61,236 nt of DNA from an uncultured Erysipelotrichaceae bacterium (GCA_902801795.1 CADCJQ010000004.1:1-61236); one strand, 5' to 3'; numbered from the stretch's first letter, positions 1 to 38,083 are shown. The notes: generated by a model from the sequence alone, not told the origin. Numbers and translations: made by a program.

Positions 1-608
1 CATTCAGTAGTTGTTAATACGGTTCTTCCATCAACCCAATCACTTGTTGTACCCATATTATCTGATTCTGTTCCATCGTAAGTATCGCTTATAGCTACTA
101 AATCACCATCAATATAAACTCTTAAAGTAATTGTTCCATTGACGTTAGTGTTTGGTGGAATATGACCTACAGCAAATTCACTGTCATTTTGAAGGATTGT
201 TCCATCTTCATATGAATATAATGTAACTGAATTTGCTGGTAAATCACTACTTGTTACATTAACACTTAATGGAATAGATTTTCCATTAGTAGTTATTCTG
301 ACATTACTAGCAGTTACTTTAAAATCAATTCCTCCAGGATAACTTGTGTTTCCTTGAATAGATACATTAACTGTCATAACATTATTAGTATCAGTTAAAA
401 TATCTCCTTTATCAATTGGAAAGACATTTTCTAATGTTACTGCTGTATAATTACTATTAAAATAGATATTCCCTACCGCAATACTATTAGGACTTCCTGT
501 TCTTGTATAGTTGAAGAATGCGATTGATACTCCTACTAAGGTACTAACCAACATAAATATCCCTAATACTATAATTAATATTTTTTTCTTTTTATTACTT
601 TGTTCCAT
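1..608 (-). CDS. Partial (runs off left edge) paralog of the 765-aa DGR target; SipW/TasA-like signal peptide surface protein
   Basis: ATG at 608 gives MEQSNKKRKILIIVLGIFMLVSTLVGVSIAFFNYTRTGSPNSIAVG...SDTYDGTESDNMGTTSDWVDGRTVLTTTE, open to the window edge. Colinear with 2799-3406 at offset 2798, no indels. Absent from the ORF track because it has no stop in the window. Confidence 0.9.
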   Translation of the reverse strand, partial: MEQSNKKKKILIIVLGIFMLVSTLVGVSIAFFNYTRTGSPNSIAVGNIYFNSNYTAVTLENVFPIDKGDILTDTNNVMTVNVSIQGNTSYPGGIDFKVTASNVRITTNGKSIPLSVNVTSSDLPANSVTLYSYEDGTILQNDSEFAVGHIPPNTNVNGTITLRVYIDGDLVAISDTYDGTESDNMGTTSDWVDGRTVLTTTE

Positions 609-625
609 AATATACCTCTTTCATC
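1..625. repeat. Long direct repeat, copy A (copy B 2799-3423)
   Basis: Near-identical nucleotide sequence, including RBS and start codon, at a constant 2798-nt offset. Confidence 0.9.
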
Positions 626-666
626 ATTTGAACAAATTACTATTCTATCTTTTACTTTATAACTAA

Positions 667-696
667 ATTATAAATGTTTTATATATAATAAGTCAA
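667..696 (-). promoter_or_regulatory. sigmaA-type promoter of the 1..608 paralog
   Basis: TTGACT-18 nt-TATAAT on - strand; same hexamers and spacing at 3466-3495 upstream of the 765-aa gene. Confidence 0.6.
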
Positions 697-706
697 TATT
701 TTTTCT

Positions 707-735
707 AAAAAAACTGCATACCATTTGCAGTTTTT
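707..735 (-). terminator. Rho-independent terminator closing the TR-spacer unit
   Basis: Inverted repeat aaaaactgca(709-718)/tgcagttttt(726-735), 7-nt loop, T-run on both strands. Confidence 0.7.
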
Positions 736-887
736 CACATAAATTAATGCGAGTATCTAGTTACTTTCAGAATATCCAATTGTAACATCTCCATTTATTG
801 TTTTAGTACTATGTACAAGGAATATAGTTTGTTTATAATCTTTTATAGTTAACTAACAATACCTAACTAATTAGTTTTTATAAGCTC
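736..887 (-). ncRNA. Putative DGR spacer (3' flank of the TR RNA)
   Basis: About 150 nt non-coding segment between TR end and terminator, in the position of the Sp region of characterised DGR RNAs; positional inference only. Confidence 0.4.
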
Positions 888-961
888 TAGGGCGATCACC
901 GTTCGCGTTAGTCGGATTGTTGCCGTTGCCATTGTTGTTCACGTTCCAGACGTTCGAGGTT
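888..961 (-). mobile_element. DGR template repeat (TR)
   Basis: - strand: acc tcg aac gtc tgg aac gtg aac aac aat ggc aac ggc aac aat ccg act aac gcg aac ggt gat cgc cct a (8 AAC + 2 AAT). Intergenic. Aligns to two VRs with mismatches almost only at TR adenines. Confidence 0.92.
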
Positions 962-998
962 CCTTCATTATACACCTATCAATCACTTGACATTATTT

Positions 999-1007
999 AT
1001 TATATCA
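999..1007 (-). promoter_or_regulatory. Extended -10 element upstream of TR
   Basis: TGATATAAT (TGnTATAAT) on - strand about 40 nt upstream of TR; no consensus -35. Confidence 0.45.
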
Positions 1008-1056
1008 TATAATTCGGGACGCATTCCATATTTGACACTTATTTACATTATTGAAA

Positions 1057-1087
1057 TCCCCATAGGGTTTAGAAAACCCTATGGGGA
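1057..1087. other. Perfect 14-bp hairpin/cruciform downstream of the DGR target gene
   Basis: tccccatagggttt-aga-aaaccctatgggga; 3-nt loop, no U-tract, about 20 nt after the stop codon. Confidence 0.75.
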
Positions 1088-1108
1088 ATAATGGTATATC
1101 CTGTTGTT

Positions 1109-3406
1109 TTATAATCCCACTACATACGGATCACTTTCTGTTCCAGATCCAGAAAGTATTTTAACCATAGATTTTAGATGAAGTGTAGGGCGACCACCGC
1201 TCGCGTTAGTCGGACTGCCGATGTCGCCGTAGCCACGGATGTGCACGAGCAAGACGTTCGAGGTTGAATATCTATTCATTAACCACATACTAATTGAATT
1301 AGAACTACCTCCTGCCTGTTGTGTTGCAAACATCTCGCCATACCTTGGCAACCCTATATTAAATGTACCAGTCTGACTTGTTTCATCACATACTTTTGTA
1401 TTCCCACTAGTTGTATTTGCACATACTGATAATTTATAATTATTATAACCACTTGTTCCTAGATAGTATGTGCCACTTGTAAATAATTCACCATACGTTT
1501 TTACTAACTTATCATAATAACCAGTATTACTAATATCACTATTATCTACTCTATTTAAATATTCATACCATGTATCTGTACCTATTGTTGTACCACTTCC
1601 CCATAATGTACTAGCAGTACCTGTACTTGTTGCGAATTTTCGTGTTCCTTTATTATCTGCATAATCCATTGCAATTATTTTGGTTTTATTATCTTCTACT
1701 CCAATTATTCTAAATACTTGTTCATTTTCATCATTTACAAGTTTTACATATTCGCCACTTAATCTTGTATTTATTAAGTCGTTAGTTTTTCCTATATCTT
1801 TATCCCCTACTATTTTATATGGGTTATCACGTGTTCCGACTCCGGTGAATTCCAATCCAGATTTTAGATAAATAGTAGGGCGAACACCGAACGCGCTAGC
1901 CGGATTGTCGTAGTCGCCGTTGCCACCGTAGTACACGCTCCAGACTTTCGAGGTATTATATGGATTTAATAGCCACCAAAAATATCCTATATTAAGATAT
2001 CCTGTACCACGAGTTGAGCCTGTACAAGCAGTACTTCCTATACAACGATAACTATTATAATATTCATAACTATTAAGTAATCCTACATTAGCAGTTACCA
2101 TATTATTTTCTAATGGTTTCGTGCTTATTGTGGTATTTGCTGGCATTGTAGCATTCCACCTCTTCGTTGTATCAATAAAATTGCTTGGTTGATATAAAGT
2201 ATCATAAAAATCTTCATTTAACCATTGATACATATATGATGTGGTATTTTCATCAGTATAGAAATTAACTTGTCCTGATTCATTAAATGCAATTAATGTG
2301 ATATTATTTTCAGTAATTAACTTCATTGTTCCATCAGGATATATAGCTGTTATTCGCCATAGTTTACCTGAATACCATACATAGTTAAAGTTGATACAAT
2401 CCTTGGTTCCTGAGAAATAAGTTATTTCATCTTCAACATATTTAATGTTTTGACATGTACCTGTTGCATGCTCATTGATAGCTTCTAATACTTTTTCTGA
2501 GCCTGATTGTTTTTTTATTACAGCATACAAAGTTGTATCACTATTAAAGTTAATGGTATCTCCTAATTTATATTCAACTTCCCCATCTGGTGTAGTACTC
2601 CATCCTCTAAAGTTAGGAACATCAAGAGATGCGGTTATGGTATCAGTTCCATCTCCTTTTAATGCTTGTCGTAATGGTGTACTTCCTAATAACTGATTTT
2701 TATTATAAGTTAGATAGCCGACAGCATTTGAATCATATACTCCTTCATCAGCAGATACTTTAACACTAAAACCAATTCCAGATGTTTGTAAAGCATTCCA
2801 TTCAGTAGTTGTTAATACTGTTCTTCCTCTTACCCAATCACTTGTTGTACCCATATTATCTGATTCTGTTCCATCATAGGTATCACTTACGGCTACTTGA
2901 TTACCATCAATATAAACTCTTAAAGTAATTGTTCCATTAACATTCGTATTTGGTGGAATATGACCTACAGCAAATTCTGAATCATTTTGAAGGATTGTAC
3001 CATCTTCATATGAATATAATGTAACTGAATTATTAGGTAAATCACTACTTGTTACATTAACACTTAAGGGAATATTTTTTCCATTAGTCGTTATTCTAAC
3101 ATTACTTGCCGTTACTTTATAATCAATTCCTCCAGGATAACTTGTGTTTCCTTGAATAGAAACATTAATTGTCATAACATTATCTGTATCAGTTAAAACA
3201 TTTGCTTTATCAATTGGAAAGACATTTTCTAATGTTACTGCCGTATAATTACTATTAAAATAGATATTCCCTACCGCAATACTATTAGGACTACCGGTTC
3301 TTGTATAGTTGAAGAAGGCTATTGATACTCCTACTAAAGTACTAACCAACATAAGTAGTCCTAATACCATAAATAAAGTTTTTTTCTTTTTATTACTTTG
3401 TTCCAT
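1109..3406 (-). CDS. DGR target surface protein: SipW-type signal peptide, TasA-like N module, InlB B-repeat-like linker, two tandem C-type-lectin-fold (DUF6273-like) domains each ending in a VR
   Basis: N-term GVSIAFFNYTRTG; FRGWSTTPDG...TTLYAV repeat; twice-repeated WRI/FRIIG...GL...W.L....G.RP...LKS...G.GT..PY domain; both domain ends match TR. Confidence 0.85.
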   Translation of the reverse strand: MEQSNKKKKTLFMVLGLLMLVSTLVGVSIAFFNYTRTGSPNSIAVGNIYFNSNYTAVTLENVFPIDKANVLTDTDNVMTINVSIQGNTSYPGGIDYKVTASNVRITTNGKNIPLSVNVTSSDLPNNSVTLYSYEDGTILQNDSEFAVGHIPPNTNVNGTITLRVYIDGNQVAVSDTYDGTESDNMGTTSDWVRGRTVLTTTEWNALQTSGIGFSVKVSADEGVYDSNAVGYLTYNKNQLLGSTPLRQALKGDGTDTITASLDVPNFRGWSTTPDGEVEYKLGDTINFNSDTTLYAVIKKQSGSEKVLEAINEHATGTCQNIKYVEDEITYFSGTKDCINFNYVWYSGKLWRITAIYPDGTMKLITENNITLIAFNESGQVNFYTDENTTSYMYQWLNEDFYDTLYQPSNFIDTTKRWNATMPANTTISTKPLENNMVTANVGLLNSYEYYNSYRCIGSTACTGSTRGTGYLNIGYFWWLLNPYNTSKVWSVYYGGNGDYDNPASAFGVRPTIYLKSGLEFTGVGTRDNPYKIVGDKDIGKTNDLINTRLSGEYVKLVNDENEQVFRIIGVEDNKTKIIAMDYADNKGTRKFATSTGTASTLWGSGTTIGTDTWYEYLNRVDNSDISNTGYYDKLVKTYGELFTSGTYYLGTSGYNNYKLSVCANTTSGNTKVCDETSQTGTFNIGLPRYGEMFATQQAGGSSNSISMWLMNRYSTSNVLLVHIRGYGDIGSPTNASGGRPTLHLKSMVKILSGSGTESDPYVVGL
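1186..1265 (-). repeat. DGR variable repeat VR1 (C-terminal domain)
   Basis: Versus TR: 11 substitutions at A, 1 at non-A (tgg>ttg), plus 2 extra NNC codons. 50/80 GC in an AT-rich gene. Encodes TSNVLLVHIRGYGDIGSPTNASGGRP. Confidence 0.9.
1876..1954 (-). repeat. DGR variable repeat VR2 (internal domain)
   Basis: Versus TR: 11 substitutions at A, 1 at non-A (aac>aaa), plus 2 extra NNC codons. Encodes TSKVWSVYYGGNGDYDNPASAFGVRP. Confidence 0.9.
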
Positions 3407-3465
3407 AATATACCTCTTTCATCTTCAAAACAAAACATTCAAACCTATTTCCCTCTACACTAAAA

Positions 3466-3495
3466 ATTATATACGCTTTTCTTATATTAAGTCAA
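3466..3495 (-). promoter_or_regulatory. sigmaA-type promoter of the 765-aa gene
   Basis: TTGACT-18 nt-TATAAT, conserved with 667-696. Confidence 0.6.
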
Positions 3496-3540
3496 TAAAT
3501 AATTTCATTTTTATACAATGAATTTACATGAGGTGTAAAG

Positions 3541-3603
3541 TTGATTAATAAAATTAAAGAATTAAGAAAAGATTATGATTTAAAACAAGTCCAAAATACA
3601 TAA
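3541..3603 (+). pseudogene. Truncated XRE-family HTH remnant
   Basis: GAGGTG RBS + TTG gives LINKIKELRKDYDLKQVQNT*, similar to the start of 3704..3919 (MYLKRLKDLREDHDLKQ). Confidence 0.55.
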
Positions 3604-3703
3604 ATACCTCATATCTTTTATAAATATATTATACACGATATTTATTGTATGTTAAAATATTTTATATTATTTCTGATAAATTTTTATTAGTGAGGTAATT
3701 AAT

Positions 3704-3919
3704 ATGTATTTAAAAAGATTAAAAGATTTACGAGAAGATCATGATTTAAAACAAAAGGATATTGCAGAACTTCTTAATATATCCCAACAATATTATAGTG
3801 AGTATGAATTAGGTAAAAGAAGTATTCCTATTGAAATACTAATAACTTTATCAAAATATTATAAAGTATCAGCTGATTATATATTAGAACTTTCTGATAT
3901 TAAGAAAAGAAGACAGTAA
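3704..3919 (+). CDS. XRE-family HTH transcriptional regulator
   Basis: LKDLRED..LKQ..IAE.LNISQQYYS.YE.G.R.IP HTH_3 pattern; GAGGT RBS. Confidence 0.9.
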   Translation: MYLKRLKDLREDHDLKQKDIAELLNISQQYYSEYELGKRSIPIEILITLSKYYKVSADYILELSDIKKRRQ

Positions 3920-3927
3920 TTAACAGC

Positions 3928-4578
3928 CTATCTTCTTTTTCTTATTTTAATATTCTCTATCATTAAATTAACTCTTTTTAGTTTATTCTTTAATGATAAA
4001 TTCGATAATATCTTTTTATTGGTATTATAGATTTCTTGATAATAATTTTTTACGATTTCATCTTGGAAATTAAGTTTACCAAAATAATAATTAATGTTAT
4101 CTTTTCCTTTAAGATAACAACTTACTAAATAATATTTTTCTTTTTCATAAACCATTACTTCATTATCTAATTTAAAACCATGTTTTGCTATTTCTTTTCG
4201 TGTTAAAGGAAAGTCATTATTTGGTGAAATAATTATCTTTTTGATATGAGGATATTTTTTGATATCTTTTAAAATATTAGTAATTGTTATTCCTCCCATA
4301 CCAGATATTACTATCGTATCTATTTCATCATCAATTGTTTCTAGTCCGTTACCTTGTTTTAAAAGAATTTTATCTTCTACATGATATTTTTTATTATTTT
4401 CCAAGGCTTTTTGAAGAGGTCCACTATTAATATCACTACTAATCATTTTTAAAACATTTTTATGAAGTACTAGGTCAATTCCTAATAATCCATGATCACA
4501 ACCAATATCAATTACTTTGTCATTTGAATTTATAAAAGCGCTTATTGTACTTAAGCGCTTATTTAATATTGTTTTCAT
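3928..4578 (-). CDS. trmK: tRNA (adenine22-N1)-methyltransferase
   Basis: DIGCDHG, DI..GPL, GNGL, ISGMGG motifs; synteny after rpoD. Confidence 0.85.
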   Translation of the reverse strand: MKTILNKRLSTISAFINSNDKVIDIGCDHGLLGIDLVLHKNVLKMISSDINSGPLQKALENNKKYHVEDKILLKQGNGLETIDDEIDTIVISGMGGITITNILKDIKKYPHIKKIIISPNNDFPLTRKEIAKHGFKLDNEVMVYEKEKYYLVSCYLKGKDNINYYFGKLNFQDEIVKNYYQEIYNTNKKILSNLSLKNKLKRVNLMIENIKIRKRR

Positions 4579-5672
4579 TAATCAGTTAAAAAATCCTTTA
4601 ATTTACGACTACGACTTGGATGTCTTAATTTACGTAAGGCTTTCGCTTCAATTTGTCTTATACGTTCTCTTGTAACATTAAAGACTTGTCCAACTTCCTC
4701 TAGTGTTCTACATTGTCCATCATCAAGTCCAAAACGAAGACGAAGTACTTTCTCTTCTCTTTCGGTTAAAGTTAATAAAACACCGGATAATTCTTCTTTT
4801 AACATTTCAATCGTTGTATATTCTTCAGGAGACATACTTCTCTCATCTCTTATGAAATCTCCTAAATGGGTATCATCTTCTTCACCAATAGGTGTTTCAA
4901 GACTTACTGGGTCTTGACTTATTTTATATACTTCACGAACCTTCTCTACTGATAAACCTATTTTCTTAGCAAGTTCTTCTTCGGTTGGTTCACGATTTAA
5001 TTCTTGTGTTAATTGTCTTTGAATACGAGCAAGTTTATTAATTGTTTCAACCATATGAACTGGTATTCTTATTGTTCTTGCTTGATCCGCAATCGCACGA
5101 GTTATCGCTTGTCTTATCCACCAAGTAGCATAAGTTGAGAATTTGTATCCTTTAGCAGGATCAAATTTTTCTACTGCTTTCATTAAACCAATATTACCTT
5201 CTTGAATTAAATCAAGAAATAACATTCCACGTCCTACATAACGTTTTGCAATACTTACAACAAGACGCAAATTACTTTCTGCAAGCATTCTTTTAGCGTA
5301 TTCATCACCTTGTTCTGCTTGTAGGGCATATTCATATTCATCATCACTTGATAAAAGATTAATACGTCCAATTTCCTTTAGATACATTCTAACAGGATCA
5401 GTTATTTTAATATCATCAGAATTCGTTAAATCTTCTAAGATTTTTTCTGGTGATTCATCACCTTCATCATCACCATCATTTAATCCTTCTTCTGAAACAA
5501 TTTGAATATGGTTATTTAAAAATGTATTGTATAAATCATCTAATGTATCAGAATCTAGTTCAAGTCCTTTTAACTCATCAGCAATTTGTTCATAAGTTAC
5601 ATAACCTTTTTGCTTTCCAAGTTCTATTAATGACTCTTTTCTTTCTTCAATAGTTCTAACTTCATTTACCAT
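4578..5672 (-). CDS. rpoD: Primary sigma factor
   Basis: [63 protein letters not shown]. Confidence 0.98.
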
Positions 5673-7411
5673 GATTTTCCCTCTTTCATTTTCAGTACTC
5701 TTACTTCTTCCATTAATTTCATTTGACGCTCAAGACTACTTTCTTCCTTTATTTCTTTCTCTAATTTTCTAATTTCAAGAGCTATATTATAATTCTTTAT
5801 TGCAATCAAACATTCATTAACTTGATTATCATCAATTATTTCTGGATAATCATTCGAAAGTATTTTTTTAAGTACTTCCATTAGACTTTTTTCTTCTTTT
5901 TGATTTAATAATGTATAAAAACTAGCTTCACTAATTTCACCATATTGATTATAATAAGAAACAATTTCATTAAAAAGTATTCTTATTTCTTTATTTGGTA
6001 TATATACATTACTATTATCAATTAAAGTAATTGCTCGAGTATAATTAAGCGAATAATAAATAAGTGATTCCATCGCCTTATTAAAACCATCTTTTTTGTC
6101 TTTTTTAACGACTAAATCTTCCTTTTTCACTACCATTTTATCGCTTGCTCGTAGTTCAATTAACTTTTTTTCCAAGGTATTATACCATACATTAGTATCA
6201 TTTGCAAGATTTTTTAACATTATTTCGCATTTAATTTCATCTTTTTCTTTAACAATTTCATCTAAAACTTTATTAACGTAATTGGTTTTATCATCAACAT
6301 CATTTAAATTATAATTTTTCTTTAAAGCCTTTATTTTATATTCGTTATAAGGAATCGCATTATCAATTAATTCTTTAAAACTATTTTCCCCATATTTTAA
6401 AATATAATCATCCGGATCTAATCCATCATTTAGGGAAACAACATATACTTTTGCCCCCATTGATGTAAAAACATCCCCTGACTTTAATGTTGCTTTCTTC
6501 CCTGCTTCATCACCATCATAACATAAATAAATAGCATTACTTAATTTTTTAATAAAGGATGCTTGTTCATTAGATAAAGCAGTTCCCATGGTGGCAATAC
6601 AATTAGTTACCCCAATCGTGAAAGATCTTATAACAGCCATAAAACCTTCCATAACAATAACGTATTTCTTTTTTCTAATTTCTTCTTTTGCACGATGGTA
6701 ATTATATAAATTCTCTCTTTTCTTAAAAATAGGTGTTTCTTTGGTATTTTGATATTTATTTAAATCACTATTATCATAAATTCTTCCGGAAAAGCCGATT
6801 ACCTTACCATCTTTATTATGCAAAGGAAACATAATTCGATTAATATAACTATCATGATTCGTACTTGATAAATCAATTAAATTAAGTTCTTCCAAAGAAT
6901 GCCCTTTATTAACTAAAAGATTGGTTAACATATCTGGTTTACTAAGTGATAAACCAATACCAAATTCATTAATAATCTCTTTGGTTAAATGTCTTTTTTC
7001 TAAATATTCTCTGGCTTTCACACCTTCCGTACTTACTAAATTATTTTGATAAAACTTATTAGCAATATCCATAATCTCATAATATTTTTGATATTTATCA
7101 TCTTCTTGTTTTGAAGTTATTCCCATATCCATACCAACAGATTTAGCAAGAATATTAACAGCTTCTATAAAACTAACATGTTCATAATTTTTAACAAAAT
7201 CAAAGGAATTACCACCTTCACCACAAACAAAACATTTATATATTTGTTTATCTGGTGATACAGAAAGACTTGGTTTATGATCATCATGAAAAGGACAAAC
7301 ACCAAAGTAATTACGTCCTTTTTTGGTAAGAGGAATATAATTAGAAATAACCGTTACAATATCTAATTTATTTTGTAATTCATTTAGTTTATCTTGATTC
7401 ATAATAATCAC
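5666..7411 (-). CDS. dnaG: DNA primase
   Basis: [14 protein letters not shown] zinc finger, RIMFP, EGFM, YDGDEAG TOPRIM, DPDD. Confidence 0.97.
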
Positions 7412-14337: not shown

Positions 14338-14347
14338 TGATACACCT

Positions 14348-20086: not shown

Positions 20087-21316
20087 CTATTTATTTTCTA
20101 ATTCTTCTTCAATACGAATTAATTCATTATATTTACAAATACGATCAGTACGAGAAATAGAACCTGTTTTAATTTGTCCAAGATTAAGTCCTACTGCAAG
20201 ATGAGCAATAGTAGTATCCTCAGTTTCTCCTGAACGATGAGAAATAATTGTTTTATAGTTATATGCACGAGCAAGTTCAATTGTTTCTAATGTTTCGGTA
20301 ATTGTTCCAATTTGATTTACTTTAAGTAATATAGCATTTCCAGCATGTAATTCAATACCTTTTTGTAAATATTCTTTATTAGTTACAAATAAGTCATCAC
20401 CAACTAATTGAATTTTATCTCCTAGAACACTAGTAATTTTGGTAAATCCTTCCCAATCATTTTCATCAACAGGATCTTCAATGGATATTATTGGATACTT
20501 CGTTGTTAATTCTTTATAATATTCAATTAATTCATCAGTTGTTAAACTACGATTTTCCCCAACAAGATTATATTTACCATCCTTAAAGAATTCTGATGCT
20601 GCTACATCAATTGCCATACATACATCAACTCCTGGAGTATATCCCGCTTTGGTAATAGCCTCCATAATTAATTTAAATCCTTCTTCATTAGAAGATAAGT
20701 TAGGGGCAAAACCACCTTCATCACCAACACTTGTAGCAAGTCCACGTTCCTTTAAAATATTTTTTAAAGTATGGAATACTTCACTTGCAACTCTCATAAT
20801 TTCTTTAAATGATTTTTGCATTGGAATAATCATATATTCTTGAAAATCTAATGAATTATCTGCATGAGCACCACCATTAATAATATTCATCATTGGACGA
20901 GGTAATGTATTTCCTTCACCAATATAACGATAAAGTGGCTTATGAGCATTCAAAGCTGCTGCTTTAAGAGATGCCATACTAACACCTAATATTGCATTAG
21001 CTCCAAGTTTACTTTTATTTTTAGTACCATCTAATTCAATCATTTTATAATCAATAGCTTTTTGATCTTCTACATCCATTCCAACTATAGCATCACGAAG
21101 AACAGTATTTACATTATTTACGGCATTTAAAACACCTTTTCCTAAATAACGAGATCCTCCATCACGCATTTCCAAAGCTTCTCTTGAGCCTGTTGAGGCA
21201 CCACTTGGTACTTCAGCACGTCCCATAATACCATTTTCCAAAATAACATCTACTTCAACTGTTGGATTTCCTCTTGAATCTAAAATTTCTCTTCCTTTAA
21301 TATTTACTATTTTCAT
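20087..21316 (-). CDS. eno: Enolase
   Basis: [39 protein letters not shown]; start placed at MKIVNIK, which has an AGGAG RBS. Confidence 0.98.
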
Positions 21317-21338
21317 TTTTTTCTCTCCTTTTCTTATT

Positions 21339-21587
21339 TTATTTTTCTTCTTCAAAACGATATTTTTGTTTTACCTCAGGATATTTTTCATGATCTACTT
21401 CTGATAAAAACATCTTAAGTGGTCTTACATAAATACCATCTTTATGATTTGCATTACTGCCATTTCCAAGACAAGCATAAACAACCATATCTTCCATGGT
21501 TTCACTATGTTTGCAAAGAGTTATTATAACCGCCCTACCACCTTTAAAATGACGATAAATCGTATTAGGCTTAACTATTCTTTCCAT
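21339..21587 (-). CDS. DUF1653 family protein
   Basis: YRHFKG, HSET.E.MVVY, VRP..MFLSEVD..KYP...QKYRFE. Confidence 0.88.
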
Positions 21588-22929
21588 TTTTTAATTCTCC
21601 TACTAAACTTTTAAATTCCGCTCCGCGAACTTCACATTCTTTGTATTGATCCCAAGAAGCAGACGCTGGACTTAATAACACAACATCACCTTTTTTCATT
21701 ATCTCTTTTATTTTAGAAAAACTATCTTTTAAATGTTCATAAATAAAAGTATTAATCTTTAATTTATCACCAAACGTTCTTACTCTTTCACGACATTCAC
21801 CAATACCGATTATGGCTTTAACATTTTTCATGTATTCACCCAAATCATCAAAGTTTTGTCCACGTTCAAGTCCTCCTAAAATAATAATTGTTGGCTTATC
21901 AAAAGACGATAAAGCAATTTGAGTACATTTAATATTTGTTGCTTCCGTATCGTTATAAAATCTTACGCCACTTATTTCATCAACAAATTCAAGACGATGT
22001 TCTACACCATAGAAATTACTAATTACTTTAGCAATAACATCATTTGTAACATTAAATTCTTTACAAATAGTAATAGCTCCTAAAATATTCTCAATATTAT
22101 GAATACCTGGTATTTTAATAATACTTGTATCAATAACTTTTTCATCATGGTAATAAATTGCATTATCTTTTAAATAACAATCCGTTTTTTCTTTACTTGA
22201 AAAATATTTCTTTTGACTTTTAATATTTTTCATTTCTTCTAAAACATCACTATTATTTAAATTAAGAATCGCAATATCATCACTACTTTGATTGTAAAAC
22301 ATTCTTGCCTTAACTTTTTTATAATTATCATAACTACCTAAAAAGTCGATATGTGCTGGACTATAATTAGTAATTAATCCTACATGTGGATGAAATTCTT
22401 GAATATTTAAACTCTGTTGAACAGATACTTCCATAACAATAATATCATCTTTTTTTAAAGTGGTTAGAATGCTACACAAAGGATAACCGATATTACCTGC
22501 TAAATGTACGCGTTCTTTAAAAGCTTCATGCATTATTTGATATGTAAGTGTTGTTGTAGTTGTTTTACCATTAGTTCCAGTTATTCCAATTAACGTTACA
22601 TCCTTTGGTAATAATTGATAAGCAAGTTCAACTTCATTAATTACCGGAATCCCTAATTCTTTAGCTTTTAATACATATTGATGATCATTACGAATACCAG
22701 GGTTTTTAATTAAATAATCAAAAGTCTTATCTAAAAGATCTTCTGGATGACTTCCTAAAATTATTTGACAACCTTTTTTCTTTAAATCATCTAATATCTT
22801 TTTATCATGTTTAGTTTCATCATTTAGGTCATTGATAACTACTTTATTATTTCTTTCTAATAAAGTATAAGAAGCCGCTACCCCACTTCTTGCTAGTCCT
22901 AGAATTAAAATCTTTTTATTTTCAAACAT
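21571..22929 (-). CDS. murD: UDP-MurNAc-L-Ala--D-Glu ligase
   Basis: GLARSG, KNPGI, GITGTNGKTTT, AGNIG, HRLE, LLSPASASWDQY. Confidence 0.95.
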   Translation of the reverse strand: MFENKKILILGLARSGVAASYTLLERNNKVVINDLNDETKHDKKILDDLKKKGCQIILGSHPEDLLDKTFDYLIKNPGIRNDHQYVLKAKELGIPVINEVELAYQLLPKDVTLIGITGTNGKTTTTTLTYQIMHEAFKERVHLAGNIGYPLCSILTTLKKDDIIVMEVSVQQSLNIQEFHPHVGLITNYSPAHIDFLGSYDNYKKVKARMFYNQSSDDIAILNLNNSDVLEEMKNIKSQKKYFSSKEKTDCYLKDNAIYYHDEKVIDTSIIKIPGIHNIENILGAITICKEFNVTNDVIAKVISNFYGVEHRLEFVDEISGVRFYNDTEATNIKCTQIALSSFDKPTIIILGGLERGQNFDDLGEYMKNVKAIIGIGECRERVRTFGDKLKINTFIYEHLKDSFSKIKEIMKKGDVVLLSPASASWDQYKECEVRGAEFKSLVGELKNGKNS

Positions 22930-26819: not shown

Positions 26820-27173
26820 TATTATTTCCTCCTACTATATTTATTAATTAATTAAATTATCCTATGATGTATCAAAATAATAGTCATATTCTTTAATACA
26901 TGCAGTAATATTACATTTATAAGTGGTTAAAACCTTATGTGCCCCCCCATTCGACACTTATTTGACATATTATTATCACCTCTATTTTGAAAATTTTCAT
27001 ATTCAAAATTCCTTTCAATTTTACATGATAATCATACCAAATTATAAAATTAATTACAATATTTTTCAATAATTATTTTACAATTTAAGAAAACCTAAAA
27101 CAAAAGAGAACTAAATTAGTTCTCTTCATGAATTATTTAAATACTTTAAATAATTAACATATTATTTATTAAA

Positions 27174-30546: not shown

Positions 30547-30547
30547 C

Positions 30548-31069: not shown

Positions 31070-31149
31070 TTAATCTCCTCTTTTATTTACAAATAATAAT
31101 TAACTTGTTATAAACATTATACCACACTATTTTTTATTTTTATATAAAA

Positions 31150-31368
31150 TTATTCAAAATCAAATATAATTCCTACAATAGCCAATATAAAAGGAATAAT
31201 ACTAACAATCATTGTCCATTTACCAATATTCTTCCATCCACTTTTATTTAATCCTTTAAAAGCTGCTTTCCATGATATTATTTTTAATTCATTTCCCCTA
31301 AACATAAATAAACCAACCAAAAGAATACATATCCCAAAGATAATCATTAATATACTAAATCCATTCAT
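31150..31368 (-). CDS. Small two-TM membrane protein
   Basis: GAGG RBS, two hydrophobic segments. Confidence 0.7.
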   Translation of the reverse strand: MNGFSILMIIFGICILLVGLFMFRGNELKIISWKAAFKGLNKSGWKNIGKWTMIVSIIPFILAIVGIIFDFE

Positions 31369-31464
31369 AACTTATTCCTCCTTTCTTTCTATTAATTTAC
31401 AATATAACATATATTTTTATTATATATCAAAAAACAGGATTTGGGTATCCTGTTTTATATATTT

Positions 31465-32553
31465 CTATTTTTCTATGTAACCGCTTACTCCTAGGGTATA
31501 CATATCATCAGTTACTTTTTGATATCTATTACCAGAATACTCATCAGTAAATCCATTATAAGCTTTATAAACATCGCCAGTTTCAGTATCATAGACTCTC
31601 TCATATCCTAAAGTAGCATCACTTCTTTTTCCACTTATAATATCATATGATTTACTTCGTTTGTTCCAAGAATCCATTATCATATCTGATATTTCATCAT
31701 ATATTTTAGCATTTGCTTGAACTGTTGAAACTTGAGAAGATTGTTCTCTATTAAAGCCTCTCATAAAATCTTCTGTAAATTCTATAGTAGATACAGAATA
31801 ATCAAATATTGATTGCCAATTATTAAATTCCGAATCTGGTGTATACATAATAATATTATGGTAAGAGTTTAGTGGTGATAAATCTACACCATACATATAA
31901 TAAGTACCACTTTCAAATATCGAAGCGGTAAATAATCCTTGCATTATTTCCCCTTTATCATTTGTAAATTTCCCTCTAATTACATCGCCACCAAGATTAG
32001 TTTTACCTAAATTTTCAATCATTTCAAAGTCATTTAAATATACAAAAAATTCTTGATTAATCTCTTTATTAACTACTTTAGCATTAGTATTCCATACTTT
32101 ATAAAATTGTTCTGTTGTTCGTGGATCAATCGCTGCTAATTTTCCAAATACGGCTGATGGATATAAACTAGCATATTTTTTCCTTGCAGCTTCACTTTTT
32201 AAGAAACCAGATAATCCAAGGGAAAATTCAAGCATATAATTTATATCTTTGGGATTATACATTTTAAACGTATATCCTGAAAATGTTACTTTATTTGGAA
32301 CAGCAACTTTCCATCCTTTTGGTATTTTCATTTTTAAATACCCATTATCAAAATCTTCATACTCTATTTGACTAGTTTCTGCTTTAGTAATTTTTAATTT
32401 TTCACCACTTTTGGTTTTTAAAGAATCATTAGTACCACATCCTGTCATTCCTAATACCATCATAAATACCAAAAAAACTGATAATATTATTTTAACTTTT
32501 TTATTCATCATAAAATACCTCTCTTTCATAATCATTTTACATAGAAATATCAA
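31465..32553 (-). CDS. Lipoprotein (true start probably MMNKKVK)
   Basis: Lipobox MTGC; SDATLGYERVYDTETG C-terminal motif. Confidence 0.78.
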   Translation of the reverse strand: MIFLCKMIMKERYFMMNKKVKIILSVFLVFMMVLGMTGCGTNDSLKTKSGEKLKITKAETSQIEYEDFDNGYLKMKIPKGWKVAVPNKVTFSGYTFKMYNPKDINYMLEFSLGLSGFLKSEAARKKYASLYPSAVFGKLAAIDPRTTEQFYKVWNTNAKVVNKEINQEFFVYLNDFEMIENLGKTNLGGDVIRGKFTNDKGEIMQGLFTASIFESGTYYMYGVDLSPLNSYHNIIMYTPDSEFNNWQSIFDYSVSTIEFTEDFMRGFNREQSSQVSTVQANAKIYDEISDMIMDSWNKRSKSYDIISGKRSDATLGYERVYDTETGDVYKAYNGFTDEYSGNRYQKVTDDMYTLGVSGYIEK

Positions 32554-32576
32554 AATTAGGGAGTACTAAAAAAGGG

Positions 32577-33899
32577 CTATTCTCCCCTTAAGATACATTT
32601 TTCTTTAAGTTCTGTTCTTGTCATACCTGTTTTTTTATAAATATTTGTAACATGAATTTTAATTGTATTAACCGATAAAAACAATTTATCCGCAATTTCT
32701 TTTTTAGTTAAATCTTGAATTAATAAATTTAATACTTTTTCTTCTTGATTACTTAATTTATATTTTAAGACCATTTCTTTTAATCTATCATTTGAAGTTA
32801 AACGATTATTTTTTAAATAATATAGAAAATAAACCCATAAGACAATACATAACATTAATGTTTCAATAACTATTAATAAAGTAGAATTTCTAATTAAATC
32901 TTTTTGAATAACAACTAAAATTCCTTCCATTATTCTTGAATACATAAGTCCTATTCCACACAAATAAAAACTTCCTTTTTTTCGATCATATAAATTAACA
33001 AAAGTTAATGTTCTAAATACAACAAAAAAACCTACAAACAAATATGACAAATTAATAACTATATTAACGGAAATATCTTGATTTAATAAAACAATAGTTA
33101 ATAAAGAAAAGACAAAACTGATTAATGTCGCAATATCAAACATTTCTTTATTTTTATCTATCAAAAATCCCGCAATTAATAAGCCAATACAATATACGAT
33201 TCTTGTATTTGCAAATAATCCTTCAATATTAAATATATGTGTTGATACTACATCTGTTGATATACCTGATAATAGTGACATTAACAAAACTATTATTGAT
33301 AAACTAATGAAATATTTTTTATAACTTAAAGTATATTTTTCATTTTTTATTATTTCTAAATCTCTATTTCGATATACAAGTAAAATATTTAAAATAACTA
33401 TGGGAACATAGATAATTAATGATGATATTGAACCATATAATTTATTAGGAAGTAAAGTTATTAAATAAGTAAGAATGGAACCTAATCCATAACCAATCGT
33501 AAAAACTCTACCACGATATTCTTTATCAATATTTAAAGCTAATAATGAAAAATGATAACCAACACCAAATCCTGCTGTTCCAAATAAACAAGTTGCACAT
33601 AAACAAATACTCATTAATATTTTATTTTCTGTTCCAAAAAACACAAAAGATGAAATAATAGCAAATAATGAAAATAAAACATAATATAATTTAATATTTT
33701 TACTTTTTTTACAAATAAACATATAAAGTAAAATTCCTAATGCCATTGATAAACTACCATAAAGTATAGCAATCATATTAACAAATTCTTTATCACAAAA
33801 ATTTAATAAATATGTTTGTTGTGTTAAATATATAGCACTACACCAAAAAAAGCCTAACGCTAATATTAAAATATGTTTGATATTTATTTTTTTAAACAT
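32577..33899 (-). CDS. Polytopic membrane protein with C-terminal LuxR HTH
   Basis: About 12 TM, then LS.QE..VL..L......EIA.KLFLS.NTIK.H..NIYKK. Confidence 0.85.
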   Translation of the reverse strand: MFKKINIKHILILALGFFWCSAIYLTQQTYLLNFCDKEFVNMIAILYGSLSMALGILLYMFICKKSKNIKLYYVLFSLFAIISSFVFFGTENKILMSICLCATCLFGTAGFGVGYHFSLLALNIDKEYRGRVFTIGYGLGSILTYLITLLPNKLYGSISSLIIYVPIVILNILLVYRNRDLEIIKNEKYTLSYKKYFISLSIIVLLMSLLSGISTDVVSTHIFNIEGLFANTRIVYCIGLLIAGFLIDKNKEMFDIATLISFVFSLLTIVLLNQDISVNIVINLSYLFVGFFVVFRTLTFVNLYDRKKGSFYLCGIGLMYSRIMEGILVVIQKDLIRNSTLLIVIETLMLCIVLWVYFLYYLKNNRLTSNDRLKEMVLKYKLSNQEEKVLNLLIQDLTKKEIADKLFLSVNTIKIHVTNIYKKTGMTRTELKEKCILRGE

Positions 33900-33994
33900 A
33901 TAGAACCACCTAAATTATATTATATCACTTTCATATAAGAAAATATTACTAAATAACTATATAGTCCTTTTAAAGTTAAAAGATAGTATTTCTA

Positions 33995-35140
33995 CTATCC
34001 AATTAAATCACCTGTTAATACTGACTTTAAAAGATTAAACCATGTATCAAAAAAACTTCTTTTATCCATATTACTGCTACTTATTAAATTGACTTCTTTA
34101 ACTAAATTATTATCGTCTTTAATTAATAATTTACCAATTACTTCTCCTTTAGATAATGGTAATTTTAAATCATTAAGTTTTACTTCACAACGATATTCCT
34201 TTTTATCTTCACCTTTCTTTTGTAAAATAGTAACATCGTTTTCAACCATAACATCTATTTTTTCAGGAATTGCTTTATCTAAAGTAACATCTCCAACAAT
34301 ATCACCTTTATTTTTTATTTTAGTAATTTCATAAGTATTAAAACCATAATCTAAAAGACTTGCCGTTTCTTTATTTCTTACTTTCCCTTCTTTTTCCCCT
34401 AAAACAACTGCCAGTAATCGCATATCATCTCTTTTAGCCGTAACAGCCATCGAATATCCTGCATTATCGGTCATTCCGGTTTTAAGTCCATCAGCACCTT
34501 TATATGATTTGATAAGTTTATTAGTGTTAACAAGCCAAAATTTATTATCAGAATTCTTTCTTAAGTAATCTTCATAAATAGTAGTAAACTTAAAAACATC
34601 CTCATGTTTCATTAATTCTATTGCAATCATTGAAACATCATATGCTGAAGAATAATGTCCTTCTTCATCAAGTCCTGTTGGATTAACAAAATGGGTATTT
34701 TTTAAACCTAATTCATTTGCTTTATCATTCATCATTTGAACAAATTTTTCTTCACTTCCGCCAACATATTCCGCCATTGCAACAATTCCATCATTAGCCG
34801 AAGCCATAATTATTCCTTTAAGAAGCTCTTCAACACTCATTTCTTCCCCTTCTGATAACCATATTTGACTACCACCCATTCCGGCAGCATTAGCACTTAC
34901 TGTTACCATATCTGTATATTTAATCTTCCCACTATCAATTTGTTCAAAAATTAAAATCAATCCCATCATTTTAGTAAGGGATGCAATACTAACTTCTTCA
35001 TTCATATTTTTATTATATATAATTGTTTTAGTAGTCGGTTCAATTAAAATACCACTTCTAGCATTAGGTAATAAATCATTATCTGCCTTTACTTGAATAA
35101 TAAATATAAAAATAAGTAAAATAACTATTATTTTTTTCAC
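33995..35140 (-). CDS. D-alanyl-D-alanine carboxypeptidase (DacF-like)
   Basis: SLTK, SAN, KTG motifs; FVNPTGL; LVNTNKL. Confidence 0.93.
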   Translation of the reverse strand: MKKIIVILLIFIFIIQVKADNDLLPNARSGILIEPTTKTIIYNKNMNEEVSIASLTKMMGLILIFEQIDSGKIKYTDMVTVSANAAGMGGSQIWLSEGEEMSVEELLKGIIMASANDGIVAMAEYVGGSEEKFVQMMNDKANELGLKNTHFVNPTGLDEEGHYSSAYDVSMIAIELMKHEDVFKFTTIYEDYLRKNSDNKFWLVNTNKLIKSYKGADGLKTGMTDNAGYSMAVTAKRDDMRLLAVVLGEKEGKVRNKETASLLDYGFNTYEITKIKNKGDIVGDVTLDKAIPEKIDVMVENDVTILQKKGEDKKEYRCEVKLNDLKLPLSKGEVIGKLLIKDDNNLVKEVNLISSSNMDKRSFFDTWFNLLKSVLTGDLIG

Positions 35141-35345
35141 TTTATCCTCCTAATAAAAATATGAAATAAATATCATTAATATTACAAAATAACAAAAAAA
35201 AGAGCATCAAGATTTGACACTCAAATTTATTTTTAACTATTATTAATTAGCAAAATACCTAAGCATTTCCCTAATATTGTATGAATAATTTTTGCGTAAT
35301 GTTGCCACTAGTATTTACTTTTCCGTTACTTGATAATATTGGTCG

Positions 35346-35634
35346 AGTTAATTGAACGAGACCAAAAAAAAGAAAGCTTTTCAACAAACTTTGGCTTCCT
35401 TTTCGGTTTAATCATTATTTAGTGCTCTGGTTGCTCCTCAGCATTGCCATATCCCCTAAACAACGTATATTATTATACACATTTTTTATATTTTTGCAAT
35501 ACCATTACATTGTATACATTTTCTATTGACAAACTATTAATTATATATATAATGGTATGCATACATTTAATTAGATGTTCTTATCTAATTATAATAGTCT
35601 TTCATATCCTAGACACAGTTAATTGAACGAGACC
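35346..35634. repeat. 18-bp direct repeat flanking divergent promoters
   Basis: agttaattgaacgagacc at 35346-35363 and 35617-35634. Confidence 0.85.
35472..35553. promoter_or_regulatory. Back-to-back sigmaA promoters
   Basis: - strand TTGCAA-16-TATAAT (35499-35472); + strand TTGACA-16-TATAAT (35526-35553). Confidence 0.6.
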
Positions 35635-35677
35635 TAAACTCTTATTTTTCAAACCTTTTCAAAAAAGTGTCATTCAA

Positions 35678-38083
35678 TCAGCCTATTCTATATGGAGATG
35701 TCGCTGTTCCATCACCATTCACTACAGGCGTTCCAGGTTTAAGTGAAACGGCAGGACGAAGACCGAGGGAATTGTACATGTAGTAGTGGTCGATGAAGCC
35801 ATTGACCACGCTGAACTCGACGGCGCCGTAGTCGTTGAAATAAGGGGGCGACAAAGACCAATAATAATTTGATCCACTATTTAAATAGAATGTTCCTGTA
35901 CTACCTGATCCTCCTGCTAATACCATTTCATCTATTGTTAGCATTGCTACTGGATAATTCAACTTTTGATTTCCATTTGCATTTTGCCATGTAAATGAAT
36001 CGTTCTTATTTGTACATGCTAGGCTTGGAGAATGATTTGTGAAATATCTATCATATCCTGCATAATGTAATGCCCCATACGCTACATTCCCTGTTGGATC
36101 CCATCCTGCTTTAGTTGATATTGTTCTATCATTACACCATATTGTATCTTCTAATTGATTTGTATAACTTGTCATATTTGATGCATACCAACTTTCTATT
36201 TGTGTTTTAGCATTTGATGGGTTTGTATTCATTTGCATTTTCTCTATTGCTTTTTCTACACTATCTCCTCCAGTTAATGTTATGTAATAATTATTACTTG
36301 TTCCACTTACAGAATAGTAATACCTTATGCTACTACATGTTCCTTCTGCAGTTGTTAAATTACATGTATAATGGTGTGTTCCATCATATCCTACTTGGGC
36401 ACTCGTTAATGTATAATTTGTTCCATCCCATGTAAATCCTGTTCCATAATATGCTCCTGATGTTGTTGCTTCATTTGTCCATTCATATACTTCTCCCCAC
36501 ATGTATCCATTATATGCTAATGATTTATACAAATTTGTTCCTGAAAAGGCAAATGTATTTGTTCCATTTAACGTTATTTGTGTATCTGTTCCAGTATTAT
36601 CACAACCATTCGATGTTAATAATTCACCAGGACCAATCATTTTAATTTTAAATGTTATAGAGCATGTATCACTTGAACTTCCTGTGTAATCCATTTTTAT
36701 TTTATCAATACTAGACAACGTCCCAAAATCATTAGCTAAATCCATGGCAGAACCCCCACCACCTCCATAACTTTTTACACTTGTTCCATTCTTATAAAAT
36801 GCATATGACCCACCACAACTTGAACCACTAGTACCTGTCATTATCATAGTATAATTATCTCCTGCTGGCACAGTGAACTCTAAAGCTGGGTGTGAACCAT
36901 CATTTATTTCTATATTCCATGTATTATCAGTTGAGTCAAAATTCCATCTTGCATCACTATTTGTTGCATCCTTCACATAACTTGTTTCAGGTAATGAAAT
37001 ACTTTCATAAACAGGTCCTGCTTCACCATTATAAATTAATTTAACTCCACCTGTATCAGTAGTTCTTACTGCTTTCCAACATTTATTAGCAAACAAAACA
37101 TTATTATTTTCTACTGCTCCTCGATAATACAATATTGGATTTGCATCATTTTCCGTACCTGCTCTCATATAGACACCTTTTCCATTTGTACTACTTGAAG
37201 TCGTTGAGAAATCTACACCTGTTGAAGCACTTACAAATTCACTTGCAACATTATCCATTATTGGTTGATTGGTTGTTGGATTTAAATTTTCAGTTTTCAT
37301 CATTTCTTCAAGTGATCCTTTTACCCAAATTCCTTCATTGGCTTCTACCTTCACTTGAAATGATATACCTGTACTTGAAAATGCATTCCATTCTGTTGTT
37401 GTTAATACAGTTTTACTTTGTGCCATAGAGTTTGTTGTTCCCATATTATCTGATTCAGTACCATCATAAGTATCAGAAATAAGTATTTTATTTTTGTCTA
37501 AATATGCTTTAATTGTTAATTTTCCATTTGATATTCCTTCAGCAGTTCCGCTAGTTGTATTAGGCTTAATATAACCTACTAAAAGCATTTGATTTCCAAC
37601 TAGAGTATCCCCTACTAATTTTTTATACATAGTAGTATCTTTGCTTTCTCTTGCTGTAAAATAGTTATTACTAGATGTTCCTAAATTAGTTACTGTTACA
37701 TCTAAACTAATTGGAACTACTTTTCCTGTTGATGTATAAATATTTGTATTTTCACTAGAAACTAAATATTCTACACCTTGGGCATAATCGGTATCACCTT
37801 CAATTTCAATTTCTAATGTACCAACTTTTGTAGCGTCAGACATTTCTTCACTATTTGTTGGATCTATTGGAAATAAATTTGTTAAACTAATTGTTTTAGT
37901 TTGTCGTGTTACAAAACTTATTCTTCCTACACTAACAGTATTTGCCACACCTGTACGTGTGTAATTAAAAAATGAATATGTTACTCCAACCACACCTATT
38001 AACAAGATTGCTATCCCAACAATTGAAAAAATTATTTTTTTGTCTTTGATTTCTTTCATCATTTTAATACCTTTCTTTAACAT
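35678..38083 (-). CDS. Paralogous SipW-signal surface protein with C-terminal CLec-like domain; remote DGR target candidate
   Basis: GVTYSFFNYTRTG, SDTYDGTESDNMGTT, YYRG..ENNNVLFA..CWK..RT, WCNDR, YWSLSP...GLRPAVSLK..GDGT..PY. Confidence 0.82.
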   Translation of the reverse strand: MLKKGIKMMKEIKDKKIIFSIVGIAILLIGVVGVTYSFFNYTRTGVANTVSVGRISFVTRQTKTISLTNLFPIDPTNSEEMSDATKVGTLEIEIEGDTDYAQGVEYLVSSENTNIYTSTGKVVPISLDVTVTNLGTSSNNYFTARESKDTTMYKKLVGDTLVGNQMLLVGYIKPNTTSGTAEGISNGKLTIKAYLDKNKILISDTYDGTESDNMGTTNSMAQSKTVLTTTEWNAFSSTGISFQVKVEANEGIWVKGSLEEMMKTENLNPTTNQPIMDNVASEFVSASTGVDFSTTSSSTNGKGVYMRAGTENDANPILYYRGAVENNNVLFANKCWKAVRTTDTGGVKLIYNGEAGPVYESISLPETSYVKDATNSDARWNFDSTDNTWNIEINDGSHPALEFTVPAGDNYTMIMTGTSGSSCGGSYAFYKNGTSVKSYGGGGGSAMDLANDFGTLSSIDKIKMDYTGSSSDTCSITFKIKMIGPGELLTSNGCDNTGTDTQITLNGTNTFAFSGTNLYKSLAYNGYMWGEVYEWTNEATTSGAYYGTGFTWDGTNYTLTSAQVGYDGTHHYTCNLTTAEGTCSSIRYYYSVSGTSNNYYITLTGGDSVEKAIEKMQMNTNPSNAKTQIESWYASNMTSYTNQLEDTIWCNDRTISTKAGWDPTGNVAYGALHYAGYDRYFTNHSPSLACTNKNDSFTWQNANGNQKLNYPVAMLTIDEMVLAGGSGSTGTFYLNSGSNYYWSLSPPYFNDYGAVEFSVVNGFIDHYYMYNSLGLRPAVSLKPGTPVVNGDGTATSPYRIG
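35747..35853 (-). repeat. VR-like patch (cognate TR not in window)
   Basis: 20 of 25 consecutive codons (FNDYGAVEFSVVNGFIDHYYMYNSL) end in C and none in A, unlike the A/T-ending rest of the gene. Confidence 0.75.

Follow-up and report, generated by a model that had tools for sequence, protein, structure and literature searches.

The 61,236-nt stretch of DNA analyzed here (the window) is the whole of contig C4 in a metagenome-assembled genome (MAG) of an uncultured Erysipelotrichaceae bacterium (G000; CADCJQ010000004.1 in GCA_902801795.1), an assembly of 1.51 Mb in 81 contigs that is 71% complete and has a GC content of ~26–27%. Four of its genes (P0001 to P0004; Table 1) are members of a lineage-specific multigene family of exported modular surface proteins, and one of them, P0002, is a target of a diversity-generating retroelement (DGR) with two variable repeats (VRs) and its own copy of the template repeat (TR) just after its stop codon. 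The family is probably built on a two-part plan with three layers of variation. The first part would be a constant N-terminal module (N-module) comprising a cleavable signal of the SipW-substrate type, the invariant mature start FFNYTRTG... and a beta-sandwich of ~200 residues, which would act as a shared handle for export and for retention or assembly. The second part would be an interchangeable C-terminal binding head that is DUF6273/C-type-lectin-like, a BspA-type leucine-rich repeat of the DUF285 kind, CotH or of no known family. Variation would then come from duplication and head swapping, from probable on/off switching by the poly-G or (AGAC)n tracts that roughly one leader in four contains and, in lectin-type heads only, from rewriting by the DGR.

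The shared module was first proposed in a first-pass annotation of the window, and it is confirmed by the translations of the four minus-strand open reading frames (ORFs), which carry the motifs listed there, and by a four-way alignment of a module of ~240 residues. Invariant positions are F31 F32 N33 Y34 T35 R36 T37 G38, F63 P64 I65, G86.T88.Y90..G93 and T196 V197 L198 T199 T200. E202. The N-modules of P0001 and P0002 are 92% identical, while BLASTP aligns that of P0004 with those of P0003 (45% over 258 residues, E 4e-58) and P0002 (41% over 246 residues, E 1e-51). P0001 ends at ...GRTVLTTTE, inside the last shared motif as had been described, because the contig stops there; when the contig ends of the assembly were compared, none of the others overlapped exactly with the window start or P0001. 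The middles of the complete genes had been called unrelated, and indeed those of the three complete window proteins give no BLASTP alignment to one another; outside the N-modules only the last ~75 residues align, and weakly (E 9e-4 and 1e-4). The closing pattern W..SP...RP...G.G..PY, taken at first as the common end of the proteins, is present in the three complete window genes and is one of several head types family-wide.

The family, at first seen as four genes, is far larger. Across the assembly, an N-module profile matches 62 ORFs at E<1e-5, which together occupy 86,460 nt (5.72% of the assembly) and which crude merging reduces to ~52 loci on at least 30 contigs (17 touching contig ends, 6 split and 29 single ORFs). 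Likewise, tblastn with three N-modules finds dozens of copies in the genome besides the window genes, with E down to 1e-153, so that sharing of the N-module lies far beyond chance. Since 17 of the ~52 loci touch contig ends, the family appears to break metagenome assemblies, and its size in MAGs is underestimated. In an alignment of 33 full N-modules FFNYTR is invariant, as against a mean column identity of 46%, and the motif G.[ST]..[FYW]F near the N-terminus is confined in G000 to family members. N-module matches occur in all eight genomes of the genus (2 to 66 per genome); of 24 further genomes in this bacterial family 14 have them, mostly weak and partial, and of 16 genomes from other bacterial families none. 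When 1.84 billion representatives were searched, 1,476 clusters matched at E<=1e-3, 305 of them at E<=1e-30; among the best 150 of the 1,476, all of them strong matches, the module nearly always lies at or near the protein N-terminus. Close homologues carry the source label 'MAG: Bacilli bacterium', and the sequencing runs that hold the window are labeled bovine gut or gut metagenome or have a coded or empty organism field, with small shares in sheep and goat gut metagenomes. At C26:15551-18691, two adjacent members break precisely where the N-module meets the DUF285 head: the first part runs to …EANEGIW and a stop, and the head resumes in a different frame, with an ATG that overlaps the first part. 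Frameshifted pseudogenes or an arrangement in two parts may account for this.

The N-terminus had been likened to a SipW-cleaved signal peptide, and this likeness holds. The segment that precedes FFNY consists of a basic n-region and a hydrophobic core of ~20 residues, followed by T or S at -3, A or S at -1 and F at both +1 and +2; each of the 33 aligned members has the small residues at -3 and -1 as well as a glycine a few residues upstream. An aromatic residue at P2' makes TasA a substrate of SipW rather than of LepB (PMC10269814, in extract), and the family residue at P2' is F. Enzymes of the matching kind (S26B), for which the first-pass annotation had suggested looking, are encoded in the genome: six loci of G000 exceed the 51.85-bit cut-off of TIGR02228 for S26B/SipW-type peptidases and two more fall below it, and there is one LepB-type peptidase gene. 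The SipW-type genes of G000 stand in operons with proteins that carry related motifs (T-Y-A-W-F, A-I-A-Y-F-T-D), and a bona fide PF12389 protein of 215 residues has its own SipW-type gene on C48. In a sister genus (G011), four head-less homologues of 212–240 residues lie in a row directly beside a SipW-type gene at the metG-tatD locus; a genome of the same genus as the source (G004) has five stand-alone N-modules of 211–241 residues in a tandem array at the metG-tatD locus, and in another sister genus (G020) head-less homologues adjoin a SipW-type gene, judging by coordinates only. Tandem head-less genes next to a SipW-type gene have the layout of a tapA-sipW-tasA-type operon. Export of the SipW type is thus a reasonably supported reading of the family, and we think it rather likely that a SipW-type peptidase cleaves the signal.

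Two side observations concern these loci. In the G011 array (L052, G011:C2), a transposase-like ORF at 4511-5665 interrupts the tandem head-less N-modules beside the SipW-type gene. In G000, five operon-like clusters (C10:42920-62004, C12:47220-50774, C5:545-6352, C55:2107-5010 and C48:1291-5930) each hold one or two SipW-type genes and several small proteins with SipW-like motifs, and one of them adjoins a protein of 3,130 residues; five SipW-type clusters is an unusual number for a genome of ~2 Mb.

The heads are of several kinds. P0002 contains a Listeria-Bacteroides repeat (residues 265-296), a DUF6273 domain (PF19789; residues 363-516, 29.4 bits; cut-off 23.5) and, at the C-terminus, another DUF6273-like domain (residues ~654-761). 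P0003 and P0004 gave no direct match to Pfam DUF6273; their tails were reached by an iterated in-genome DUF6273 profile, which also drifted onto the end of the N-module. In the ESM Atlas, residues 620-801 of P0004 fall with DUF6273 clusters at 0.98, and 21 of 30 matches belong to the DUF6273 set, while its middle ~430 residues are without a Pfam family. A Pfam scan of 20 further complete members returned DUF285 in 12, LRR_5 (BspA-type) as the top family in three, CotH in one and nothing in four. The 'lectin-fold tips' announced for the family therefore fit only a part of it, because most of the scanned members have DUF285, LRR_5 or CotH heads; the description stands for the DUF6273 domain of P0002 and may extend to the linked tails of P0003 and P0004.

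The head of P0003, of ~280 residues, also recurs behind a prepilin-type N-terminus, as in P0447 (BLASTP E 1e-26, 32% over 283 residues), and PF07963 is present in many of the best 120 listed matches to this head. At the level of protein sequence, this shows the P0003-type head to be a module mounted by bacteria on carriers of the filament type. In the six proteins whose heads are most similar to that of P0003, 16-18 of 25 positions are invariant in the head, compared with 3-8 of 25 in the N-module, and the comparison suggests that heads and N-modules may reassort by recombination. At three further loci of G000 (C30:6623-11166, C12:12483-13718 and C18:13968-16628), DUF6273-type heads stand behind different N-modules that have a SipW-like start motif (e.g., ...VSVSYSYFVYNKE), which suggests a possible superfamily of such N-terminal handles.

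The DGR target in P0002 is recognized by a 73-nt TR core, the orphan template, and by its two counterparts VRa and VRb in the two DUF6273-type domains (Table 1). Each VR was compared with the TR, and in both cases TR adenines account for 11 of the 12 substitutions (Fisher p 6.8e-6); 24 adenines remain in the TR, and its Asn-rich frame is intact. A live cassette is present elsewhere in the genome: the sole reverse transcriptase (RT) gene of G000 lies at C3:79789-81264 (PF00078), with Avd at 79443-79808 and a TR of 120 nt, and its VR is in a family member, with TR adenines as the site of 24 of the 25 differences (p 1e-13). In a blind genome-wide screen for TR/VR pairs (self-BLAST, with a single base, A or T, accounting for 80% or more of the mismatches), the C3 pair alone was found; the window pair was missed because of a 6-nt gap. 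A second orphan TR follows a paralogue on C9. The bodies of the window and C9 TRs differ though their 3' flanks are alike: a stretch of ~162 nt at and 3' of the window TR is 92% identical to C9:30217-30378. This shared flank could be an RNA element for template use or a remnant of duplication. BLAST with the TR and its flank gave no convincing match in 40 genomes that each represent a different other genus of the bacterial family, a sample in which the genus of the window was represented by G000 alone. Scans returned neither a promoter before the TR nor a terminator of the TR unit, so an extended -10 (TGTATAAT) and a hairpin with a T-run that were seen by eye are unconfirmed, and Rfam had no match in the window. 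An RNA motif guessed by eye to be shared 3' of the live-DGR and orphan TRs was dropped, as it misfits the window sequence and occurs at unrelated places. In the three runs other than the source, contig cover becomes thin or ends at both VRs, and a joint of low depth passes over 1875-1962; neither observation is counted as evidence.

P0003 and P0004 show a compositional and population-level footprint of DGR rewriting, without a template in the assembly. Coding-strand A falls to 0.16-0.17 in their VR-like zones, compared with 0.38-0.39 in the whole genes. Across 64 length-matched homologues of P0004, the stretch from W-S-L-S-P to G-L-R-P is the most variable block; among the six closest homologues of P0003, residues 601-625 have 4 of 25 positions invariant as against 17 of 25 at residues 526-550. 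In a sister species (G007) a DGR targets a P0004-type tail, with 20 of 21 differences at adenines and a 3-nt gap. DUF6273 is, moreover, a known DGR target domain in gut phages (PMC10743442, in extract), and at least 14 family genes have a GC-rich island at the C-terminus. On C35, an island rich in GC and poor in A that was considered as a template candidate proved to be an (AGAC)n repeat.

Repeat tracts mark the leaders of a subset of the family. Among the 49 family genes with an assembled 5' region, nine have G6-G10 tracts at -97 to -139 and three have (AGAC)12-24, so that 12 leaders carry poly-G or (AGAC)n. Eight of the 15 G/C runs of at least 7 nt in G000 lie in family leaders, which make up ~1% of the genome. 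The leader of P0003 holds a short upstream ORF with such a tract (Table 1), and a similar word (AAGTGTCAAAT...) also occurs just past a terminator-like hairpin of P0002, near 1010-1040. The (AGAC)n tracts, 48-96 nt long, are found upstream of three genes (at C35:516-635; on C7, ~116 nt before 2270-4714; on C11, ~241 nt before 21034-22809), and two of these genes are the paralogues nearest to P0003. Such tracts are candidate switches for phase variation and differ from the poly-G leaders. On balance, the repeats likely switch expression.

Table 1. Family genes, DGR-related repeats and leader elements in the window
Feature	Position	Strand	Description
P0001	3..608	(-)	partial; first 202 codons of a family member, truncated by the contig end
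Promoter-like site upstream of P0001	667..696	(-)	TTGACT, 18-nt spacer, TATAAT; 11/12; consensus match only
Non-coding stretch at and 3' of the TR	733..893	(-)	~162 nt; 92% identical to its C9:30217-30378 counterpart
Orphan TR	888..960	(-)	73-nt core; Asn-rich in frame (TSNVWNVNNNGNGNNPTNANGDRP); between the P0002 stop and the P0001 promoter-like site
P0002	1109..3406	(-)	765 residues; signal-like segment; N-module, residues 1-~224; further domains C-terminal
VRb	1186..1264	(-)	in the C-terminal DUF6273-like domain of P0002; coding-strand A 0.18
VRa	1876..1954	(-)	in the first DUF6273 of P0002; coding-strand A 0.20, compared with 0.38 in the whole gene
P0003	24864..26819	(-)	651 residues; N-module, residues 1-257; ~280-residue head, residues ~371-651
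VR-like zone of P0003	24945..25055	(-)	residues 589-625; coding-strand A 0.16; GC ~0.49; hypervariable among orthologues
Upstream ORF in the P0003 leader	26927..26968	(-)	13 codons; contains a G7 tract, 26942-26948
P0004	35678..38083	(-)	801 residues (794 from the second ATG); N-module, residues 1-254; DUF6273-like tail, residues ~686-798
VR-like zone of P0004	35756..35860	(-)	residues 742-776 (W-S-L-S-P ... G-L-R); coding-strand A 0.17

The neighbors of the family genes in the window are housekeeping genes, among them trmK, rpoD, dnaG and the genes for RNase J, an L,D-transpeptidase, PBP5 and ABC transporters. The window also has a sortase and genes of the capsule type (CpsB/CapC phosphatase, Wzz-type tyrosine kinase) at 45168-48706, which are unrelated to the family and show the presence of other surface systems.

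A number of results weigh against the two-part reading as set out above and have to be set beside its support, beginning with the N-module. With regard to export, there is no TIGR02228 match on the window contig, linkage to sipW is seen only for the distant head-less homologues of G011 and G020, and SipW-type genes occur in 21 of 24 genomes of the bacterial family irrespective of the N-module family; TIGR04088 matched none of the four window proteins or 33 N-modules at E<=1, with a very short model of the kind that HMMER filters often drop. With regard to kinship with TasA, PF12389 matched none of the four window proteins at E<=1 and was subthreshold in three of the 33 N-modules (best E 0.0012), leaving 30 with no match. 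In a whole-genome scan two family members scored 21.1 and 19.2 bits against the cut-off of 22.5, which the unrelated 215-residue gene on C48 passes. A bridge to TasA through the short head-less homologues was dropped, as PF12389 matched none of the five G004 and none of the four G011 proteins. On the supporting side, hhalign does pair the N-module with the PF12389 family of G000, over the signal and first strand only (39 columns, E 8e-4, probability 24%). As modeled by AlphaFold, the mature N-module is a beta-sandwich (predicted local distance difference test score, pLDDT, 81.6) with its first nine residues disordered (pLDDT 36). Foldseek against the PDB gave no match at E<=0.001 for models with and without the N-terminal helix. 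VIA-align ranks the CLIPPER domain of a fibrillar adhesin (Z 5.6), FnBPA (Z 5.4) and pilin domains of C. perfringens (Z 5.3) at the top, and the TasA fiber 8aur_A at rank 16 (Z 4.7, root-mean-square deviation 4.2, 131 residues aligned, 15% identity), a score that many unrelated beta-sandwiches share and that lies less than one Z unit below the top. A profile search of PDB sequences yielded one chance-level match (E 1.4), and the camelysin cluster that comes third in the ESM Atlas, at 0.89, serves as a lead only. For the TasA-like fold proposed in the first-pass annotation, PF12389 and Foldseek thus gave no significant match and VIA-align a weak one; we read the N-module as a SipW-operon-associated beta-sandwich family of its own, with a possible distant kinship to TasA.

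How the proteins stay on the cell bears directly on the choice between readings. The C-termini of the complete window proteins (...DPYVVGL in P0002, ...SPYILKVS in P0003, ...SPYRIG in P0004) have no LPXTG motif or hydrophobic tail, while G000 has four sortase matches, one of them in the window at 48074-48706, and Pfam and NCBIfam scans found no wall-binding or anchoring domain in the window proteins, so that retention must fall to the constant module. In the TasA fiber, the donor strand consists of residues 28-38 right after the SipW cleavage site, with F29, I32 and F39 (PMC9674648, in extract). The invariant, disordered mature N-terminus of the family would fit a donor-strand role, and the tandem head-less paralogues would fit backbone subunits. 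By this analogy, we tentatively consider that the N-module might hold the proteins on the cell by TasA-like self-assembly with its N-terminus as donor strand, a proposal that on present evidence is somewhat doubtful. A bolder version, in which the donor-strand N-modules of ~50 paralogues would co-polymerize with head-less paralogues into a mixed fiber, the repeats would choose the heads and one mobile DGR would tune the lectin-type heads, its RT also serving stand-alone templates such as 888-960 behind remote targets, is improbable; co-polymerization is invoked there because donor strand and acceptor module would be nearly the same in all of the paralogues.

The plainest rival has the proteins as monomeric adhesins without a fiber, cleaved by any type I peptidase, with the N-module as a stalk or non-covalent wall-binding domain and FFNYTR conserved because the cleavage site or wall binding requires it. 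Stalk and adhesin domains do lead the VIA-align matches (Z 5.3-5.6), no Pfam result places the module in the TasA family and the genome does encode a LepB-type peptidase; however, no known wall-binding or anchoring motif is present in the window proteins, head-less N-modules in tandem beside a SipW-type gene have the layout of a fiber-subunit operon, and the P0003-type head sits on pilin-like proteins in other bacteria, so that this account is rated unlikely, though not implausible. Less likely again is that the signal remains uncleaved and anchors type II membrane proteins whose N-module spans the wall. The hydrophobic core of ~20 residues is long, and both AlphaFold models that include the N-terminus show one continuous helix over residues 3-42, but a plain anchor would not be expected to be followed by six invariant residues; the small -3/-1 residues and upstream glycine in 33 of 33 members and the related motifs (T-Y-A-W-F, A-I-A-Y-F-T-D) in sipW-operon proteins of G000 speak for cleavage instead. 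A prophage or phage-tail origin, with the family as receptor-binding proteins, is very improbable: although gut phages are the best-known setting of DUF6273 heads and DGR targeting (PMC10743442, in extract) and 6 of 33 N-modules faintly match a phage tail tube family (best E 0.0058), all members have the N-terminal signal-like segment, the window neighbors are housekeeping genes and the ~52 loci are scattered over at least 30 contigs.

A weightier rival concerns the DGR, which in the window may be a matter of history: the TR at 888-960 would be a decaying relic and the tails of P0003 and P0004 fossils, with variation now supplied by duplication, recombination among paralogues and repeat switching. 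Most scanned members carry non-lectin heads (DUF285, LRR_5, CotH), and no DGR was seen touching those. The TR is 6 nt shorter than both VRs and is therefore, as assembled, not their last template, and each TR/VR pair contains one non-adenine change. No RT gene was found on the window contig or near the C9 orphan TR, the assembly, 71% complete, containing one; RT homologues occur in four of eight genomes of the genus, two of them fragmentary, and the split ORFs beside the live C3 cassette would belong to a second, decayed DGR. Compared with the three TRs of G000, P0003 and P0004 do not rise above background, and the G007 TR is homologous to the P0004 VR but is not its template, with 22 adenine and 17 other differences. 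Conversely, a contig from another sample (run X20) spans 824-953 with six extra letters, which equal the shortfall of the TR against the VRs, and one other difference, which weakly suggests that a full-length template allele exists; the TR with its 24 adenines and intact Asn-rich frame, the 3' flank conserved between the two orphan TR loci and the incompleteness of the genome likewise speak against a relic. We regard a purely historical DGR as a serious candidate that falls short of being the probable one, and use of the orphan template in trans, by the C3 RT or an unassembled RT, as possible to a similar degree. The claim that the heads are DGR-diversified accordingly stands for P0002, with its two VRs and TR, and for the family member targeted by the C3 cassette, but for P0003 and P0004 no template is present in the assembly.

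The two-part reading can be compared with several known systems. With TasA/TapA/SipW of Bacillus subtilis (PF12389, 8AUR) the family shares small residues at -3 and -1, an aromatic P2' and S26B genes in the genome; a conserved stretch right after the cleavage site, where the TasA donor strand (28-38) lies (PMC9674648, in extract); a beta-sandwich of ~200 residues; and, in sister genera, tandem short paralogues beside a SipW-type gene. It differs in that PF12389 stays below its cut-off, the structural likeness is weak (Z 4.7) and the window genes lie outside a sipW operon; moreover, most members add 250-800 C-terminal head residues, and there are ~50 paralogues per genome, compared with one or two in the case of TasA. 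DGR targets with C-type-lectin/DUF6273 folds include Mtd of Bordetella phage, TvpA of Treponema, and the tentaclins and Mtd-like targets of gut phages (PMC10743442, in extract). Like these variable proteins, P0002 has VRs at DUF6273 ends, adenine-specific differences and an Asn-codon-rich TR, with one TR for two VRs, and the scaffold motifs W-x-L-S-P and G-x-R-P flank the variable block. Unlike them, the target here is cellular and exported with a large constant N-module, the window template stands alone after its target, 6 nt short and without RT or Avd on the contig, and many paralogues have VR-like tails without a template.

Two further comparisons concern repertoires and carriers. The type IV pilin-like proteins P0504 and P0447 resemble the family in that a filament-type or export N-terminus carries a homologous head at the C-terminus; their PF07963 prepilin segment is, however, cut before the hydrophobic helix, whereas the family site lies after it and is followed by a beta-sandwich. 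The variable lipoproteins of Mycoplasma form a phase-variable multigene surface repertoire with simple-sequence repeats. Similar features here are a small genome of which one surface family takes a large share, repeats upstream of a subset of genes and many split or pseudogenized copies. In contrast to such repertoires, the anchor here is not a lipoprotein signal, the repeats lie in the leader with a tiny upstream ORF rather than in a promoter spacer or coding sequence, and the switching is a predicted one. No literature was found that joins a DGR with TasA, or that describes a SipW-dependent family of this kind, in a search that left supplementary tables outside its range.

The family raises the question of whether TasA-like modules can carry cargo, and the orphan template of the window, with its promoter-like site and conserved 3' flank, offers a test case for a DGR reverse transcriptase that acts in trans on distant templates. 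If the mixed-fiber proposal were true, it would amount to a combinatorial, programmable display of adhesins on a fiber of the biofilm type and to the first DGR working through dispersed orphan templates. If the two-part model is true, uncultured small-genome gut Bacilli would combine a SipW/TasA-type handle with swappable adhesin heads and two mechanisms of variation and, since the system takes up ~6% of the genome, it probably dominates the encounters of these cells with hosts, feed particles, phages and neighbors.

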